Shown: in pieces, positions 1 to 30,489 of the stretch
How positions within the stretch are numbered: the first letter of the stretch is position 1
Layout of the letters: each line of letters begins with the position of its first letter
DNA from: an uncultured Gemmatimonadales bacterium
GTDB lineage: Bacteria; Gemmatimonadota; Gemmatimonadetes; Gemmatimonadales; Gemmatimonadaceae
Direction of reading: 5' to 3'
Assembly (NCBI GenBank): GCA_963793305.1
Contig: CAWBZV010000005.1
Span: 800,001 to 864,000, forward strand
DNA length: 64,000 nucleotides
Translations under genes and position numbers: made by a program
The notes under the pieces: generated by a model
The model's input: only the letters and a program-made list of their open reading frames with translations
Told to the model about the DNA's origin: nothing
Database searches by the model: none

Positions 1-146
1 ATCGGTCGATAGGCTTCTTCGACCTGAAGAAGTGCACCGTTGCGCCGACCCAGCCAAAGCACGATGCACTCGCAGTTGTCTTGACCCGCATCGCGCAAAT
101 GAGTGAGCGTCAAATCAACGAGCGCAGGAGGGCAGAGCGTTAACAT
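1..146 (-). CDS. bilC: JAB/MPN (Mov34) deubiquitinase-like metallopeptidase, N-terminal part; runs off window (BilC-like)
   Basis: Not in the ORF track. Manual translation from ATG at 146: MLTLCPPALVDLTLTHLRDAGQDNCECIVLWLGRRNGALLQVEEAYRP, containing the JAB N-terminal E-x3-LW-x-G strand. It starts right after the E2 stop (TAG 149-147). The HxH motif lies outside the window. Confidence 0.7.
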   Translation of the reverse strand, partial: MLTLCPPALVDLTLTHLRDAGQDNCECIVLWLGRRNGALLQVEEAYRP

Positions 147-584
147 CTACCCTTGTCCTTTCTGCCAGGCGCGCCATACTTGGGTCAATATGCCGCCGAG
201 GTCGTAGCTGGAGGCATCCCTAAGATTCTGCCAGAGATCGCTCACGTGGCTCGGGTGCGTGTGGTATTCTCGTGAGCCCCGCATGCAGATGAACAATCGA
301 TTGGTGATCGGGTGTGGTCCGGGATGAAACACGCCCGTCGGGTTCGACAGCGCGGTCGTCAGCAATGAGCCATCGGCCGCATGGAGCGTTATTGACGGCG
401 GTAGATCATTCCAGTCGTTACAAGTGAACCGAACCCGTAGCGGAGTTCGACCGATCGCAGTGAACGAACAGTCGATAATCGGAAATTCAAGCGCGTGAAG
501 AGTCCATCCACGACGCTGTGCTAACGCCGGAGACAAAGAACCCACATCGCGTTCGAACAATTCCTTGGCGGCGGCCGGATGCAT
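147..584 (-). CDS. bilB: E2-like ubiquitin-conjugating protein, Metal_CEHH type (BilB-like)
   Basis: DWNDLPPSI motif and FICMRGSREYHTHPSH (C-E-H-H signature with putative catalytic Cys). Coupled to the Ubl gene by TAATG overlap at 584. Confidence 0.8.
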   Translation of the reverse strand: MHPAAAKELFERDVGSLSPALAQRRGWTLHALEFPIIDCSFTAIGRTPLRVRFTCNDWNDLPPSITLHAADGSLLTTALSNPTGVFHPGPHPITNRLFICMRGSREYHTHPSHVSDLWQNLRDASSYDLGGILTQVWRAWQKGQG

Positions 585-898
585 TACCCCCCTCCGCCCT
601 CGCTCGGACCCCAGTCGATCTCCACCTCGCCGGCGAGGCCGTGCTGTTGGTAGGTCAGCGCAATGTTGATTTCACGCTTGCCCGAGGGTAGCGTGACGGT
701 CGCAACCCAGCCCGTCGTGTCTTTGATCTTTAATTCCGCTTTGGCCTTGTGCAGGCCGACCTCCACCTTCTGGTCGATGGGCACTCGGTTGAATCCCTCG
801 GCGGGATAGAAGCCCGCGGTAGTCGAAACCGAGACCTCCACGAAATGCTCGCGCTTGTGTTCATCGGCCGAGCCATGGCTCGATTGCCCCATACTCAT
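584..898 (-). CDS. bilA: Ubiquitin-like (beta-grasp) protein with C-terminal glycine motif (BilA-like)
   Basis: 104 aa ending ...VEIDWGPSEGGGG-stop. First gene of a Ubl-E2-JAB operon. GGAG RBS upstream. Confidence 0.75.
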   Translation of the reverse strand: MSMGQSSHGSADEHKREHFVEVSVSTTAGFYPAEGFNRVPIDQKVEVGLHKAKAELKIKDTTGWVATVTLPSGKREINIALTYQQHGLAGEVEIDWGPSEGGGG

Positions 899-935
899 CT
901 CCGTCGCTCCTGACTTGAGAAGTCACATATGATGC

Positions 936-963
936 AATTTATGGCCATTTTATACATTGTCAA
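936..963 (-). promoter_or_regulatory. Sigma70-type promoter for the Ubl operon
   Basis: Minus strand TTGACA (963-958), 16 bp spacer, TAAATT (941-936), in an AT-rich intergenic region. Confidence 0.55.
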
Positions 964-987
964 TGGCCGATGAATATATCAAAAACG

Positions 988-1015
988 TTGCTTTTTTGGC
1001 CTGAAGCAGTATAAT
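988..1015 (+). promoter_or_regulatory. Sigma70-type promoter for the RHH-GNAT-HTH-peptidase cassette
   Basis: TTGCTT (988-993), 16 bp spacer, TATAAT (1010-1015); GGAG/GAGG RBS before ATG 1046. Confidence 0.55.
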
Positions 1016-1045
1016 TCCAGAGCACCAAATCGGAGAGACGAGGCT

Positions 1046-1255
1046 ATGGATCGCAAACAAATGACGCTAATGCTCAGCGACAAGGAGATGTCGCTGCTCG
1101 ATGAGCTGGCTGAGCGGCGGGGGATGTCAAAGACCGCACTCGTGCGCCAGGCGCTGCGGCTCTACCAATCGGTGACGGAGCGGATCGAGAGCGGAGAGAA
1201 AGTCTTCGTAGAGCGACCGTCGACGAAAGAGAAAACTGAGCTCATGGTCCTATGA
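1046..1255 (+). CDS. Ribbon-helix-helix (CopG-like) DNA-binding protein / antitoxin
   Basis: 69 aa, QMTLMLSDKEMSLLDELAERRGMSKTALVRQAL is a classic RHH pattern; ATGA overlap with the GNAT gene. Confidence 0.85.
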   Translation: MDRKQMTLMLSDKEMSLLDELAERRGMSKTALVRQALRLYQSVTERIESGEKVFVERPSTKEKTELMVL

Positions 1256-1863
1256 AGGAACTGCTCGGCGACGCCATTCTGCTCGAGCGCAGCACCGAGG
1301 CTGATGCTCCCGCCCGGATATTCAGGACACTGGACCAGAAGAATTTCGACGATTTCGAGACTTTGTGGCGCCCGATGCTCAAAGAAGCGCGTGGCCGGGC
1401 CGCCTCCTGGGAGGGCGCCGCGAAGTTCGACGCTCAGGATTCGCACTGGGAGTGGGTTGAGAAGGCGGTCGAGGCCGAACGCATCATGGGCCGCGACACC
1501 TACGCAGTAGAATGCGCGGGCGTCACCCAAGGACTGATGCTCATCAATGTCGGGTTCGGACGATTACCCGACCAGCGCGGCAAGGAGCTGATCTACATTG
1601 AGCTTCTCGCCACGGCGCCATGGAATCGGCCGAAACTGACTCCAGATGCGCGCTACAAGGGTGTCGGCCGTGTGCTGGTGGGTACGGCGATCAGCCTGAG
1701 TGATGATCTCGGCTTTGGAGGCTGCATCGGTCTACACTCATTGCCCCAGTCGGAAGACTGGTACCGAGCGGGCGGGTTCACGGACGTCAAGTACGACGAG
1801 TCGAAGAAGATGCGGTATTTCGAGATGACTAACGACGATGCGCTGGCATTCGTATCAGATTGA
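1252..1863 (+). CDS. GNAT family N-acetyltransferase (toxin-like)
   Basis: YIELLATAPWNR...YKGVGRVL acetyl-CoA binding motif, GLHSLPQSEDWY..GF. Confidence 0.85.
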   Translation: MKELLGDAILLERSTEADAPARIFRTLDQKNFDDFETLWRPMLKEARGRAASWEGAAKFDAQDSHWEWVEKAVEAERIMGRDTYAVECAGVTQGLMLINVGFGRLPDQRGKELIYIELLATAPWNRPKLTPDARYKGVGRVLVGTAISLSDDLGFGGCIGLHSLPQSEDWYRAGGFTDVKYDESKKMRYFEMTNDDALAFVSD

Positions 1864-1872
1864 GGAGGGATT

Positions 1873-2376
1873 ATGAAACTGCTATTCACTATCGACGGCT
1901 TGCGACGAAAGATCGCGGCCGATCCAGAAGACGAACCTATGGCGGGCGGCCCCGAGGGCCGCTCCGTCGATAGCACATTGGCGGCGGAAAACGCTGCCAT
2001 CATTGGTGAGAGCAAGGTAGTCCAGCTGCGTATCGGTCTAGGGGTACTCGTGCGCCAGTTGCGGCTCAGAGATGGCCTGTCGATCGCTCAACTCTCCGAG
2101 CGAGCCCAGGTTGCGGAAGATGATCTGCGTCAAGTCGAACATAACCCTCATTACACAGCACGCGCGCGCTTGATTCACCAGCTTTCGGAGTACTTCGGCG
2201 TGTCCCTCACGATGTTGTCGCAAATGTCGGGCACGACACATTCCGTTGACCGAGCACTCTATAATGATGTGGTCAAGTACGCCGCGCATTCGGATGATGT
2301 CTCAGCTCTCACGAGTGAAGAGCGAGAGACGCTCCATGCTTTCGTCGCTATGCTGAATGAGCGCTCGCGGACCTAG
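1873..2376 (+). CDS. XRE-family HTH transcriptional regulator
   Basis: LGVLVRQLRLRDGLSIAQLSERAQVAEDDLRQVEH; strong GAGGAGG RBS. Confidence 0.8.
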   Translation: MKLLFTIDGLRRKIAADPEDEPMAGGPEGRSVDSTLAAENAAIIGESKVVQLRIGLGVLVRQLRLRDGLSIAQLSERAQVAEDDLRQVEHNPHYTARARLIHQLSEYFGVSLTMLSQMSGTTHSVDRALYNDVVKYAAHSDDVSALTSEERETLHAFVAMLNERSRT

Positions 2377-2378
2377 CT

Positions 2379-3305
2379 ATGCTGGAGGGTGAGCTCGGAG
2401 ATTTCGAGAAGCGCGATATTCGGGCGCAAGTCGAACGGATCCTCAGAGACCTCGGTAACCCCGAGCCTCCCCTGCGACTGGCTGATGTCCGCAAGCTCCT
2501 CGCGATCGATCTCCATTACTATCGAAGCTCAGATCCAGGCCTGGTCGATGAGCTCACACATCGGTTCAAGGTCTTCGCCCGAAAATCGATCCCCGACCTG
2601 GGCAAGCATCTGCTATCGGCGTTGACGAAGTCACGACTCTGTGCATTCTGGGTGCCGGAAAGCTCGAAAATTCTTGTCGACGCTGATGTGCCCGAGCCGA
2701 AGCACCGCTGGCTAGAAGCGCATGAAGTCACTCACAGCGTAACGCCATGGCACCGCAAGTTTCTCTTCGGTGACAACTATCACACGTTGGATCCGGCTTG
2801 CCACGCATCGTTGGAGGCCGAGGCAAATTACGGCGCGGGAAGACTTCTCTTCTTGCAGAATCGGCTTGCCGAGGAAGCTCGCGATCTCCCGCTGTCGTTC
2901 GAGTCAATCAAGTTGCTGTCGAAGCGATACCACAACTCAATCGTCTCGACGTTCTGGCGGGCTGTAGAGGATCGAAACCCAGATCAACCGGCATTTGGGA
3001 TTGTTAGCGTTCATCCGCTTTATCCGGATATTGGCAATCATGATGGACCCAATCCCTGGCGCTATTACATCCGATCCTCGGGATTCCAAAGACAGTTTTC
3101 AGTCGTGACGCCCGATGACGCCTTTGGCCTTGTGGCCCGGTACGCGAGTAACAAAAGGACGGGGCCCATTTTCACTGCGACGCATCTACTTAGAGATGTG
3201 AACGGAGACGAATGGGAATTCAACATTGAATCCTTCTCGACCAAGCATGCGCTCTTGACTCTCGGGTTTCCGGTTCGCCGGCATCAGACCCTGGTATCCA
3301 CTTGA
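2379..3305 (+). CDS. ImmA/IrrE-family Zn metallopeptidase (CapP-like)
   Basis: RWLEAHEVTH (HExxH) and downstream EAEANYGAGRLLF; 2 bp after the HTH stop. Confidence 0.85.
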   Translation: MLEGELGDFEKRDIRAQVERILRDLGNPEPPLRLADVRKLLAIDLHYYRSSDPGLVDELTHRFKVFARKSIPDLGKHLLSALTKSRLCAFWVPESSKILVDADVPEPKHRWLEAHEVTHSVTPWHRKFLFGDNYHTLDPACHASLEAEANYGAGRLLFLQNRLAEEARDLPLSFESIKLLSKRYHNSIVSTFWRAVEDRNPDQPAFGIVSVHPLYPDIGNHDGPNPWRYYIRSSGFQRQFSVVTPDDAFGLVARYASNKRTGPIFTATHLLRDVNGDEWEFNIESFSTKHALLTLGFPVRRHQTLVST

Positions 3306-3763: not shown

Positions 3764-5089
3764 ATGTTCCCGTTTCATATTGGAACTATGTCCCGGTCGC
3801 ACCGGCCCTTAGGCGCCGCGCTCGAGCCTCCGTTGGTCGTGCTTGTGCACGAGGGGAAGGGACCCGTCGCGCGTGGATCGGCCAGTGACGGGTTCGACTA
3901 CACGTGTCACGCGTGCGATCTGGTTCTGGCTGAGAGTGTTGACGAGAACGCGCTGTGGGACGTGGGACTCAAGTGTCCCCAGTGCGGAGCGCTGAATGAC
4001 GCGCCAAGCCTCTCGGCGGATCGGCCCTTGCCCAGGCAGTTCGTCGAGATAATGCCTGGAGTCAGGGTCTATCGGGAGACCATCGATCTCCGGGGGGCGA
4101 GTGTCGTGGGAACTCCGGGGTTGGCACGCCGCGGCGCCACTCGACCCACACGCGAAGCGACCTTCCGAGCGACTGAGACAGCCTACTCCTTGGTGATCGA
4201 GCCGCGCGAGTTTCTGAGCGACCTGGTTGATCGCGTTCGGGCGACGCTCGGCGACGCGTTTGCCGTCATCGAAGCGCGCGACAAGCGGCGCCGGGCCAGT
4301 CGAGCCGCGCCAGAGAACCGTCATGGGCTCATGGTGGCGGTGGAAGCGGTGCAGGCGTCGATCGTAAGCCTCGAGTCATTCGAGCCAACGATCGCTGTCT
4401 CTGCAGTAACGGAGCTGGACGTCGTGCTTCGGTTCCTAGAGCGATGGCGGGGAGTGCGGGAGTGGCCGACATTGATTGAAGCGCTTTCTCAGCAACAACA
4501 GTACGCACACACCGTGGTGTTGCTCGCGACGGCGACGGCGCTGGCAGACAAAGGGAATGTCGTCGATTTCATGCCGACGGCCCGGTCGCGTACCCCGGAC
4601 CTGGTCATGATGCGCGCTGCGGGTGGTTGGTTCGCGGTCGAGGTGAAAGGGCCGCGCGCATTGGCCACGCGGTTTCCCAGGCGATGGAAGGCAGACGAGG
4701 CGTATGATCTGATCCGCACGCAAGTGATGCGCGCCCGCCGAGGGAACAAGGGGCAGATGGCAGCGGGCGAGGCAGGCCTCCTGGTGATCGGCGGGATGTA
4801 CAATCACCTCGAGACAATCGAATGCCTCAAGGCGGCGGCGGTCGAGTATTTGGCTGATGCGGCCGGGAAGCATCGCCATTCGGACATGGAGGGGATCTCG
4901 CTCGTCAATGTGGCGACACTCGTCGAAAATCGTGCGCCGCTCGGCCGACCGCTGTTACCCTTTGCGCAATTTCGCTGGGTTCGACATCCCGGGTACCGCG
5001 GTCGGGCATCGATCGTTCCATCAAATGCCGGGATGAACGTCGTATCAGGGCCGCTAACTCAACCGGGCGACGTGCGGATGGACGTGTAA
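3764..5089 (+). CDS. Zn-ribbon + PD-(D/E)XK nuclease-like protein
   Basis: N-terminal CHAC...CPQC; C-terminal RTPDLVM...FAVEVK catalytic motif. Confidence 0.6.
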   Translation: MFPFHIGTMSRSHRPLGAALEPPLVVLVHEGKGPVARGSASDGFDYTCHACDLVLAESVDENALWDVGLKCPQCGALNDAPSLSADRPLPRQFVEIMPGVRVYRETIDLRGASVVGTPGLARRGATRPTREATFRATETAYSLVIEPREFLSDLVDRVRATLGDAFAVIEARDKRRRASRAAPENRHGLMVAVEAVQASIVSLESFEPTIAVSAVTELDVVLRFLERWRGVREWPTLIEALSQQQQYAHTVVLLATATALADKGNVVDFMPTARSRTPDLVMMRAAGGWFAVEVKGPRALATRFPRRWKADEAYDLIRTQVMRARRGNKGQMAAGEAGLLVIGGMYNHLETIECLKAAAVEYLADAAGKHRHSDMEGISLVNVATLVENRAPLGRPLLPFAQFRWVRHPGYRGRASIVPSNAGMNVVSGPLTQPGDVRMDV

Positions 5090-10648: not shown

Positions 10649-10858
10649 TGGGCCCGTTTCTGGGCCCGTTTCTCCCGGCAAACTCCGTCATCCGGGGCAG
10701 GGAACCACGGCGCCGATGCCCGGTTCTCCTCTGAACGCCGTCAAGTTGACGGACTTGGATACCCCAGTAGCTTGGTTTGCAACCAGGAGGTCAGGGGTTC
10801 GATCCCCCTCCGCTCCATGGACTTAACTTTTCAGTGGCCCGTTGGTGTGCCCTGTTTC
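10649..10858 (+). repeat. attP-like junction copy 1 (arm repeats + palindrome + tRNA-Ala 3' half + arm repeats)
   Basis: Direct repeat of 30281-30489 at constant offset 19,632: 10679-10756 matches 77/78 and 10771-10826 matches 56/56. TGGGCCCGTTTC occurs twice at 10649-10672. Confidence 0.9.
10771..10817 (+). tRNA. tRNA-Ala(TGC) 3' fragment only (att core; not a complete tRNA)
   Basis: CTTGG-TTTGCAA-CCAGG anticodon arm, AGGGG-TTCGATC-CCCCT T-arm, CCGCTCC-A acceptor strand with U70 (Ala identity); no D-arm or 5' acceptor strand upstream. Confidence 0.85.
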
Positions 10859-30280: not shown

Positions 30281-30489
30281 TCGGCCCGTTTGTTGGTCCG
30301 TTTCTCTCGACAAACTCCGTCATCCGGGGCAGGGAACCACGGCACCGATGCCCGGTTCTCCTCTGAACGCCGTCAAGTTGACGGACTTCGATATGATCGT
30401 AACTTGGTTTGCAACCAGGAGGTCAGGGGTTCGATCCCCCTCCGCTCCATGGACTTAAGTTTTGGTTGGCCTGTTTCTCGGCCCGTTTC
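30281..30489 (+). repeat. attP-like junction copy 2
   Basis: Arm repeats TCGGCCCGTTTG/TTGGTCCGTTTC (30281-30304) and TTGGCCTGTTTC/TCGGCCCGTTTC (30466-30489) around the same core as copy 1. Confidence 0.9.
30403..30449 (+). tRNA. tRNA-Ala(TGC) 3' fragment only (att core)
   Basis: Identical to 10771-10817; 5' half absent. Confidence 0.85.

Follow-up and report, generated by a model that had tools for sequence, protein, structure and literature searches.

Why should an operon for ubiquitin-like conjugation face, across one short intergenic region, not only a damage-sensing repressor and peptidase of the CapH/CapP kind but also a ribbon-helix-helix (RHH) protein and an acetyltransferase? The question is raised by the left end of a 64,000-nucleotide stretch of DNA from an uncultured Gemmatimonadales bacterium (assembly GCA_963793305.1, contig CAWBZV010000005.1, positions 800,001–864,000), called here the window, in which genes for a ubiquitin-like (Ubl) protein, an E2 with a CEHH motif and a JAB peptidase on the minus strand diverge from genes for an RHH protein, a GNAT-fold acetyltransferase, an XRE-type repressor and an HExxH peptidase on the plus strand. 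An earlier note on this DNA had proposed these seven genes, and all seven open reading frames (ORFs) were found where it had placed them (Table 1). The tight coupling that it described within each arm also holds: RHH and GNAT overlap by 4 nt, Ubl and E2 overlap by 1 nt, E2 and JAB abut, and gaps of 9 nt and 2 nt separate GNAT from XRE and XRE from the peptidase. Three families of controllers that sense DNA damage and govern bacterial immune operons are known; CapH/CapP is one of them and has been treated as a two-protein switch. Our analysis supports well the view that the Bil operon of this locus is controlled, from the shared 147-bp region, by an extended four-gene form of the CapH/CapP ‘controller of adjacent pathways’. 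As to the two added genes, we favor, with a probability of about 0.4, a triad of toxin-antitoxin-like character: by cutting the CapH-like protein, the CapP-like peptidase would both derepress the operon and release the activity of the GNAT. Bil and CapH/CapP-type control are known kinds and their pairing is not new; the RHH-GNAT-CapH-CapP cassette, its shared boxes and a GNAT-linked motif on the CapH-like protein form, as far as our searches reach, an undescribed and widespread variant. Three points had been missed in the earlier note: this motif, a broken E1 gene and a tRNA-Ala island.

Operons of the CEHH/6C kind have been renamed Type II BilABCD, with the order Ubl-E2-deubiquitinase (DUB)-E1 and an example in Ensifer aridi TW10, and a divergent CapH/CapP was counted at 25 of 162 of them (Chambers et al., PMC10557695); CapH and CapP were also counted at 168 of 544 Bub operons, or 31% (PMC11601596). 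CapP is described as a peptidase that single-stranded DNA activates and that cleaves the repressor CapH (10.1101/2022.04.27.489752; 10.64898/2026.05.16.725639). The earlier note had suggested that an RHH-GNAT pair co-transcribed with the switch may be an undescribed composite; Bil with a divergent CapH/CapP had already been published, whereas the conserved RHH-GNAT addition stands, the words GNAT, acetyltransferase, RHH and ribbon-helix-helix being absent from the main texts of PMC10557695, PMC11601596, both CapH/CapP preprints and the CapK/CapS paper. Moreover, a search of the literature on GNAT with CapH/CapP, Bil, M78 or HORMA found nothing relevant except PacTA.

The analogy with CapH/CapP, also drawn in the earlier note, is supported by the PADLOC profiles capH and capP, by a fold search and by family-profile searches. 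The capH match is weak and aligns residues 55–163 of the XRE protein with positions 6–100 of the 103 of the profile; a profile of the CapH-like family matches SinR, DdrO, CapH itself (7T5U; E 0.0022, weak) and ImmR. In an alignment of fourteen cassette peptidases, H115, E116, H119, Cys141 and Glu146/Glu148 are invariant, a Glu-x-Glu following the HExxH by 27–29 residues with the invariant cysteine between them. The single peptidase sequence gave only chance-level matches against the PDB, but its family profile matches IrrE (3DTE) at E 5e-4, and the top eight of the fold search include IrrE (3DTE, 7.7e-5), PprI with single-stranded DNA (8SLN), a mycobacterial XRE-peptidase regulator and CapP (7T5T, 1.8e-3), with PAS/LOV/GAF-like domains next in the ranking. 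As in the CapH+CapP module of the E. coli MS115-1 CBASS (cyclic-oligonucleotide-based antiphage signaling system; Lau et al., Calloji et al.), an XRE repressor with a C-terminal dimerization domain precedes an M78 zinc peptidase that ends in a GAF-like domain, and the genes diverge from an immune operon, a position in which the module is known beside CBASS, Bil and Bub. Unlike that two-gene module, the cassette of the window has RHH and GNAT genes in front, making four genes in a fixed order; its CapH-like protein has about 54 extra N-terminal residues, including the GNAT-linked motif; Cys141 lies 22 residues after the HExxH as opposed to 13 in E. coli CapP, so that a cysteine switch is uncertain; and the sequence matches are weak (capH E 2.2e-4). 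The logic of a peptidase that cleaves a repressor is shared with IrrE/DdrO of Deinococcus and ImmA/ImmR of ICEBs1 and phages, and IrrE/PprI are the top fold and profile matches; what those pairs control, however, is DNA repair or element excision instead of a neighboring immune operon, and an RHH-GNAT pair accompanies none of them.

The spacer between the two arms is AT-rich, as had been claimed, with 42% GC against 57–58% in its flanks. The back-to-back promoters also proposed for it are less straightforward, as a consensus scan of the spacer found one site where 1.4 are expected from shuffles; we credit both promoters because they are conserved across 18 Bil-type loci, the scan alone not being above chance. 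The plan common to the 18 loci places a TGGCCA box between the two elements of the Bil promoter, a TTGACA −35 element on the minus strand, a second box abutting this −35, and a third box between the −35 and −10 elements of the cassette promoter. The box of more distant cassettes is TAGCTA or TAGCCA. In 21 upstream regions, each 150 bp long, the hexamer TRGCYA occurs 36 times, compared with 0.11 copies per 150 bp in the remaining sequence of the loci, and 17 of 18 spacings between copies are 11, 22, 33 or 34 bp. Importantly, the same boxes, at the same position relative to a TTGAC −35, stand at four RHH-GNAT loci that have neither XRE nor peptidase (L017, L131, L149 and L161), and for this reason we assign them to the RHH protein, of which, to judge from the sequences, they are probably the operators.

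The strongest tie between the two halves of the cassette lies in the CapH-like protein. About 27 residues at the start of all 17 cassette XRE proteins are conserved; a variable linker separates them from the helix-turn-helix (HTH), and the conserved stretch is outside the capH profile, which aligns from residue 55 on. At stand-alone loci the same motif is found on small proteins encoded after the GNAT (an 89-aa HicB-family protein in L017, short proteins in L131 and L161). When all frames of 161 sources were searched with a hidden Markov model (HMM) of the motif through four iterations, 99 of the sources had it, namely all the non-cyanobacterial ones except L067, in which it was seen by eye, and four with contigs presumed to end too early. 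At all of these 99 loci the motif begins no more than 4 nt before and 49 nt after the GNAT stop codon, the lone exception being a read-through artefact. Given this constant adjacency, the GNAT and the motif constitute a fixed pair, and in the cassette it is the very repressor expected to be cut by CapP that carries the motif; RHH-GNAT and CapH/CapP are thus integrated, not merely co-transcribed.

In L067 (7950–10696) a GNAT of 245 aa is followed by the motif fused directly to an M78 peptidase, with no separate XRE gene, and then by a gene for a ‘Beta protein’ (PF14350); the partner there is a Bub II-like operon. The cyanobacterial relatives of the GNAT (L024–L083; for example, L041 5406–9175 and L024 5666–9232) are 32–41% identical to it and without RHH. 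Many are on plasmids of Nostoc, Calothrix and Leptolyngbya, often beside extra DNA polymerase A, clamp-loader, beta-clamp or helicase genes, and each overlaps a downstream gene for a protein of 166–241 aa of no known family. These cyanobacterial partners carry a look-alike of the motif by eye; the iterated HMM found none in them at E 1e-3, profile-profile comparison gave a probability of 9.7% (E 0.0033), and we make no claim for it.

What kind of acetyltransferase is paired with the motif? By sequence the GNAT matches only Acetyltransf_10, at E 0.08 and below the Pfam cut-off, and none of its 401 relatives at E ≤ 0.001 has a Pfam family. A model built on 26 relatives, with a predicted local distance difference test (pLDDT) score of 91.6, has 337 PDB matches at E ≤ 0.001, all with the GNAT fold among the matches listed; judged from this model, the fold is certain and the subfamily is not. 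Across the 26 GNAT sequences, the acetyl-CoA loop residues and a tyrosine of motif B, at the core of what we take to be motifs A and B, vary little or not at all, which points to an active enzyme. The RHH protein is highly conserved, including the C-terminal tail that follows its DNA-binding part (alignment of 20 sequences), and its order before the GNAT, with an overlap of 4 nt, is the canonical antitoxin-then-GNAT layout. TacAT, AtaRT, ItaRT and KacAT likewise have a small RHH gene that overlaps the start of the GNAT and an RHH protein with a C-terminal tail, and the RHH-linked tRNA-acetylating toxins ItaT, TacT and AtaT align with our GNAT model at Z 12.4–12.9. The RHH protein of the cassette is, however, of the CopG type and not DUF1778, which we take to be the antitoxin family of the known GNAT toxins; the GNAT has about 20 extra N-terminal residues and no sequence match to those toxins; and a third conserved partner is always present. 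The top neighbors in VIA-align are the PacT toxins (8GXJ/8GXK/8GXF/1YRE), with Z 14.3–14.6 and a root-mean-square deviation of 2.5–2.7 over about 160 residues (model residues 3–203), although the PacT value of 14.6 is tied within about 2 units with many GNATs. PacT of Pseudomonas aeruginosa arrests translation, and its antitoxin, encoded downstream, is an HTH protein with an extra domain (PMC9561280). PacTA thus resembles the cassette in that a GNAT precedes an HTH protein with an extra domain, and differs from it in showing no detectable sequence similarity, in the extra domain of PacA, which is of the arabinose-binding type and not a short motif, and in being without RHH, peptidase and immune operon. 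A predicted complex of GNAT and RHH scored 0.02 (mark 0.32) and is used neither for nor against binding; no fused form of the GNAT scored among 1139 candidates of 357–2000 residues, which is weak evidence.

In the toxin-antitoxin-like reading that we favor, the RHH protein would bind the TRGCYA boxes inside both promoters and shut down both arms, while the GNAT would be an active enzyme restrained by the RHH protein and/or by the N-terminal motif of the CapH-like protein, as in toxin-antitoxin systems. Phage-induced or other DNA damage would produce single-stranded DNA and activate the peptidase, a step known for CapP and IrrE; the activated peptidase would cleave the CapH-like protein; and the cleavage would derepress the immune operon and free or retune the GNAT, giving a growth-arresting second output or a timer. 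Our confidence in these predicted steps is highest for the damage-triggered cleavage of the CapH-like protein that would induce the divergent operon, which follows by homology, and falls through repression by the RHH protein at the boxes and restraint of the GNAT to a change in GNAT activity upon cleavage. The role of back-up toxin, which the earlier note had considered for the GNAT, stays conjectural. A sharper version, in which the CapH-like repressor doubles as the restraint of a GNAT toxin through its motif of about 27 residues, so that a single cut by CapP, activated by single-stranded DNA, switches on Bil, Bub or CBASS and unleashes a translation-arresting acetyltransferase, with the RHH protein resetting both promoters, is put forward tentatively and seems to us rather unlikely as a whole. 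If the GNAT does serve the switch as a second output or provide it with a metabolic input, the view of how Bil, Bub and CBASS immunity are induced would change, and the triad, if true, could embody a new toxin-antitoxin logic in which the antitoxin is removed by a dedicated, signal-activated protease.

In the main rival explanation, the GNAT is a regulator and not a toxin. It would then acetylate the CapH-like protein, at its N-terminus or at the near-invariant Lys2 of the motif, or else the RHH protein, and acetylation would tune DNA binding, stability or susceptibility to CapP, coupling the switch to acetyl-CoA or to the growth state. The motif begins with M-K in nearly all sequences and is always next to the GNAT; the structural neighbors at Z 12–13 include N-terminal acetyltransferases (RimI, RimJ, NatB and Ard1) and protein lysine acetyltransferases; and three conserved partners suit a set of enzyme, substrate and regulator at least as well as they suit a toxin-antitoxin pair. 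Yet the best structural match is a proven toxin, the layout is that of overlapping RHH-then-GNAT genes, the stand-alone triads lie beside other toxin-antitoxin genes (PIN in L161, a HicB-type partner in L017), and the acetylation itself is purely predicted; we regard the regulator as a possible but doubtful explanation.

A survey of gene neighborhoods, which the earlier note had suggested, found the four-gene cassette beside defense operons in many lineages, contrary to the chance adjacency that the note had named as a refutation. A scan of genomes with the GNAT gave 101 relatives, of which the best 80 were kept and compared with the window proteins by tblastn. The complete nine-part arrangement is present at 6 of the 80 loci, and two more are cut by contig ends; it occurs in beta-, gamma- and alpha-proteobacteria and in a Marinimicrobia bin. 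Other loci keep RHH-GNAT-XRE-peptidase facing a type I Bub operon (JAB-E1 fusions and DUF6527), a type II Bub operon (multiubiquitin, DUF6791-ThiF and DUF6527), a HORMA-type CBASS or an AAA_15 ATPase. A scan of metagenomes found at least 494 relatives of the GNAT (596 stretches), and among the best 80, which were examined, 61 loci are informative, the partner being Bub I at 27, Bub II at 12, Bil II at 9, Bil-like at 3, CBASS at 7 and none or not recognizable at 3; the other 19 are uninformative, 16 having less than 1.5 kb upstream and no match and 3 starting inside the GNAT gene. The split between Bub I and Bub II is rough, resting on the best tblastn match; the partners of L088 and L089 are really ThiF and a protein kinase, and L086 is the same contig as L013. 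All five CBASS partners examined have a SMODS cyclase and a HORMA protein, with SAVED effectors and a TRIP13-like ATPase where the contig reaches. This form of CapH/CapP, into which an acetyltransferase and a second repressor are wired, is widespread; the loci examined number at least 100. On named replicons the cassette stands beside Bil II (Bradyrhizobium barranii pBb1S5b), CBASS III (Nitrobacter hamburgensis X14 plasmid 2 and Methylobacterium currus), Bub I (Agrobacterium fabrum pAt1), Bub II (Novosphingobium sp. KA1 pCAR3) and a DUF2188 gene (a Gemmobacter plasmid). The Nitrobacter, Novosphingobium and Bradyrhizobium carriers are in culture and non-pathogenic. Only one of nine plasmids with a BilB homologue carries the GNAT; in two of the others, a WYL regulator or an Xre-RES pair takes the divergent position.

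The gene order RHH-GNAT-XRE-peptidase is fixed down to about 35% GNAT identity and across four kinds of partner operon. Mapped onto a GNAT tree with 76 rows, the partner labels require 20 changes (minimum 6; mean of shuffled labels 41.9), and none of 200 shuffles reached so low a value; the rows linked to Bil II group together (SH-aLRT 90), CBASS occurs twice, and the Bub and Bil-like labels are intermixed. The cassette has therefore mostly been inherited with its partner, yet the partner has changed repeatedly, the clearest case being that of L014 (Bub) and L016 (CBASS), the GNATs of which are sisters with 78% identity. The fixed order bears on the possibility that RHH-GNAT is an ordinary addiction module of islands and plasmids that has become fixed beside CapH/CapP with no functional tie to the switch or to the immune operon. 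The family is indeed common on islands and on plasmids (55 plasmid records, 29 of them conjugative or mobilizable), and stand-alone forms exist; but such a module would have to account for the constancy of the order across partners, for the GNAT-linked motif built into the CapH-like protein and for the occurrence of RHH-type boxes in the immune operon's promoter too, and we find it improbable.

The same survey bears on the proposal of the earlier note that lysine acetylation gates Ubl conjugation. In this case the GNAT would act on the Ubl pathway, for example, by acetylating lysines of the target or of the Ubl protein so as to block or steer conjugation, and the partner is in fact an E1-bearing Ubl operon at 51 of the 61 informative metagenome loci and at 16 of 19 classifiable genome loci, the window included. 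This excess may only mirror the frequency of CapH/CapP at Bub operons, 31% in the published count (PMC11601596). Moreover, the same cassette is found beside type III CBASS, which has no Ubl conjugation (7 of the 61 loci, L016 and two of the named plasmids), as well as beside the DUF2188 gene and the AAA_15 ATPase, and the core triad, RHH-GNAT included, also stands alone. The proposal is disfavored by these findings, and we consider any action of the GNAT on the Ubl pathway very unlikely.

In the metagenome locus L146 (4114–7469, minus strand) the cassette faces four genes, of 86, 407, 256 and 218 aa, without Pfam match, a candidate for another CapH/CapP-controlled operon. The genes opposite it in L088 (3581–5752, minus strand) and L089 encode a ThiF protein of only 264 aa, a Ser/Thr protein kinase of 289 aa and a further protein of 168 aa; such a combination of an E1 with a kinase corresponds to neither Bil nor Bub in their described forms. 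In L106 (4814–7273, minus strand) the partner comprises a DUF7665 protein (E 2.9e-21) and a 534-aa protein with a weak JAB match; DUF7665, which the E2 of the window touches weakly (E 0.051), may be the E2-like family of a further Bil-like type.

The operon that the cassette faces in the window is, with good support, a Type II BilABCD (CEHH/6C) operon with the order Ubl-E2-DUB-E1 on one strand. Its JAB gene runs off the window and is complete, with the HSH...S..D motif, in L003, the 15 kb immediately to the left. The E2 aligns with the E2 BilB of Ensifer aridi (PDB 8TYZ_C) over the C..E.H....H stretch. The Ubl protein has no Pfam match, but its end, EIDWGP.EGGGG, is kept by sixteen homologues in Bil-type loci (17 sequences with that of the window). 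The order of the genes, the CEHH E2, the JAB peptidase, the N-terminal domain and ThiF of the E1, the C-terminal glycine of the Ubl protein, the occurrence among relatives of up to three tandem Ubl domains or long N-terminal extensions, and the presence of divergent CapH/CapP in a minority of operons are all shared with Type II BilABCD as described. The Ubl protein of the window differs in ending directly in GGGG, so that little or no C-terminal trimming seems needed, and the controller differs in having four genes where two are known. Among the relatives, the Ubl genes of L008 (6849–7685, minus strand), L058, L100 and L010 include one locus with three tandem Ubl repeats, the others having long, charged N-terminal extensions of repeated DLEKA-like units; these forms agree with the published diversity of Type II BilA.

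An E1, the absence of which beyond the JAB gene would by the earlier note have refuted its reading, is present next to JAB, though split into three frames where Type II BilABCD has one intact frame. A 190-aa ORF matches E1-N (9.9e-15) and a 299-aa ORF matches ThiF (1e-16), and comparison with the intact E1 of L009 assigns residues 1–162, 164–203 and 204–476 to the three frames, with 49–68% identity. There is one extra base at each junction, the two flanking 40 codons with the glycine-rich nucleotide-binding loop. In all six related loci that reach that far the E1 is a single ORF of 465–519 aa, and no second copy was found in the genome. The rpoB, rpoC and secA genes are each one open frame (1584, 1433 and 1087 codons, respectively), which indicates that the assembly is not riddled with insertions and deletions; three public sequencing runs contained 0.06–0.10 of the sampled words, too little to represent the strain. 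A real pseudogene is thus more likely than a local assembly error, and since the two 1-base insertions lie around the ATP-binding loop, the Bil arm of this genome is probably inert.

Several points weigh against the toxin-antitoxin-like triad, or at least against the detail with which we draw it. The toxicity of the GNAT, its acetylation target, the cleavage of the CapH-like protein, DNA binding and a phage phenotype are all predicted. No sequence match links the GNAT to a proven toxin, the Pfam matches being below the cut-off, NCBIfam giving no family and a 26-sequence profile finding only chance-level matches in the PDB, and in structure it scores about equally well against toxins and against many harmless GNATs such as RimI/J, NatB and SpeG. 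For the RHH protein Pfam lists RHH_1 and five weaker families, DUF1778 not among them. The two candidate restraints on the GNAT, the RHH tail and the N-terminal motif, exceed what a simple toxin-antitoxin model needs. The assignment of the boxes to the RHH protein rests on four stand-alone loci, three of which are close kin, and comparison of the Bil-type loci distinguished no separate CapH operator from the promoter elements and boxes. The N-terminal half of the peptidase model is poor, with pLDDT below 50 at residues 40–87 and 105–157, and good only from residue 160 on. No match was found in 50,697 phage records, and the two frameshifts in the E1 could still be local assembly errors.

Table 1. 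Positions of the features discussed in the text; coordinates are those of the window unless preceded by L003.
Feature	Position	Strand	Evidence or remark
JAB/JAMM deubiquitinase (BilC), N-terminus, first 48 codons	3-146	-	gene runs leftward off the window
BilC, complete gene	L003 14682-15146	-	154 aa; Prok-JAB E 5.2e-7; PADLOC BilC E 2.4e-15; HSH...S..D motif read by eye
E2-like BilB with CEHH motif, 145 aa	147-584	-	Pfam Metal_CEHH E 4.6e-7 (above cut-off); PADLOC BilB E 6.5e-4
Ubiquitin-like BilA, single domain, 104 aa, C-terminus ...DWGPSEGGGG	584-898	-	ORF; homologue alignment
Shared control region, 147 bp, 42% GC	899-1045	.	architecture kept in 18 Bil-type loci
Promoter-like site, Bil arm, TTGACA-16-TAAATT	936-963	-	sole match of the consensus scan; TTGACA conserved across loci
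Box 1, TGGCCA (TRGCYA palindrome)	942-947	.	within Bil promoter spacer
Box 2, TGGCCG (5/6)	964-969	.	abuts Bil promoter -35; 22 bp from box 1
Promoter-like site, cassette, TTGCTT-16-TATAAT	988-1015	+	read by eye, below scan threshold; position conserved across loci
Box 3, TGGCCT (5/6)	997-1002	.	within cassette promoter spacer; 33 bp from box 2
RHH (CopG-type) DNA-binding protein, 69 aa	1046-1255	+	RHH_1 E 1.6e-8; overlaps GNAT start by 4 nt
GNAT-fold acetyltransferase, 203 aa, uncurated family	1252-1863	+	structure model; fold matches
CapH-like XRE repressor, 167 aa: N-terminal motif, variable linker, HTH (~56-113), C-terminal domain	1873-2376	+	HTH_31 E 1.6e-5; PADLOC capH E 2.2e-4
Motif of ~27 residues, MKLxFTxxWLxxxIxxDPDxExEAGxP	1873-1953	+	opens the CapH-like protein, directly after GNAT
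CapP/IrrE-like zinc peptidase, 308 aa	2379-3305	+	PADLOC capP E 1.6e-9; HExxH at 115-119; C-terminal GAF/PAS-like domain
Direct repeat of tRNA-Ala 3' part (~47 bases), right end of island	10771-10817	+	no such match in 100 shuffles
tRNA-Ala gene	L003 4392-4464		integrase-like gene beside it (24.8 bits, just below Pfam cut-off)

On either side of the two arms lie genes that we do not count as members of the system. Directly after the peptidase (window 3764–5089, plus strand) a 441-aa protein has weak zinc-ribbon (Com-like) and VRR-NUC matches, all below the cut-off; it was rejected as a cassette member, having no relative in the 80 genome loci. Beyond the broken E1 (L003 11483–12946, minus strand) are genes for an AraC-type regulator and for a protein with HTH_31 and DUF3850, rejected on the same ground. 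The remaining island genes are likewise not conserved alongside the system in those loci. The 3′ end of the tRNA-Ala gene, about 47 bases, which marks the right end of the island, is repeated again at window 30403–30449 with similar flanks, which indicates two islands integrated in tandem: one of about 21.4 kb that contains the locus and, behind it, one of about 19.6 kb with MarR, FAD-monooxygenase and histidine-kinase genes.

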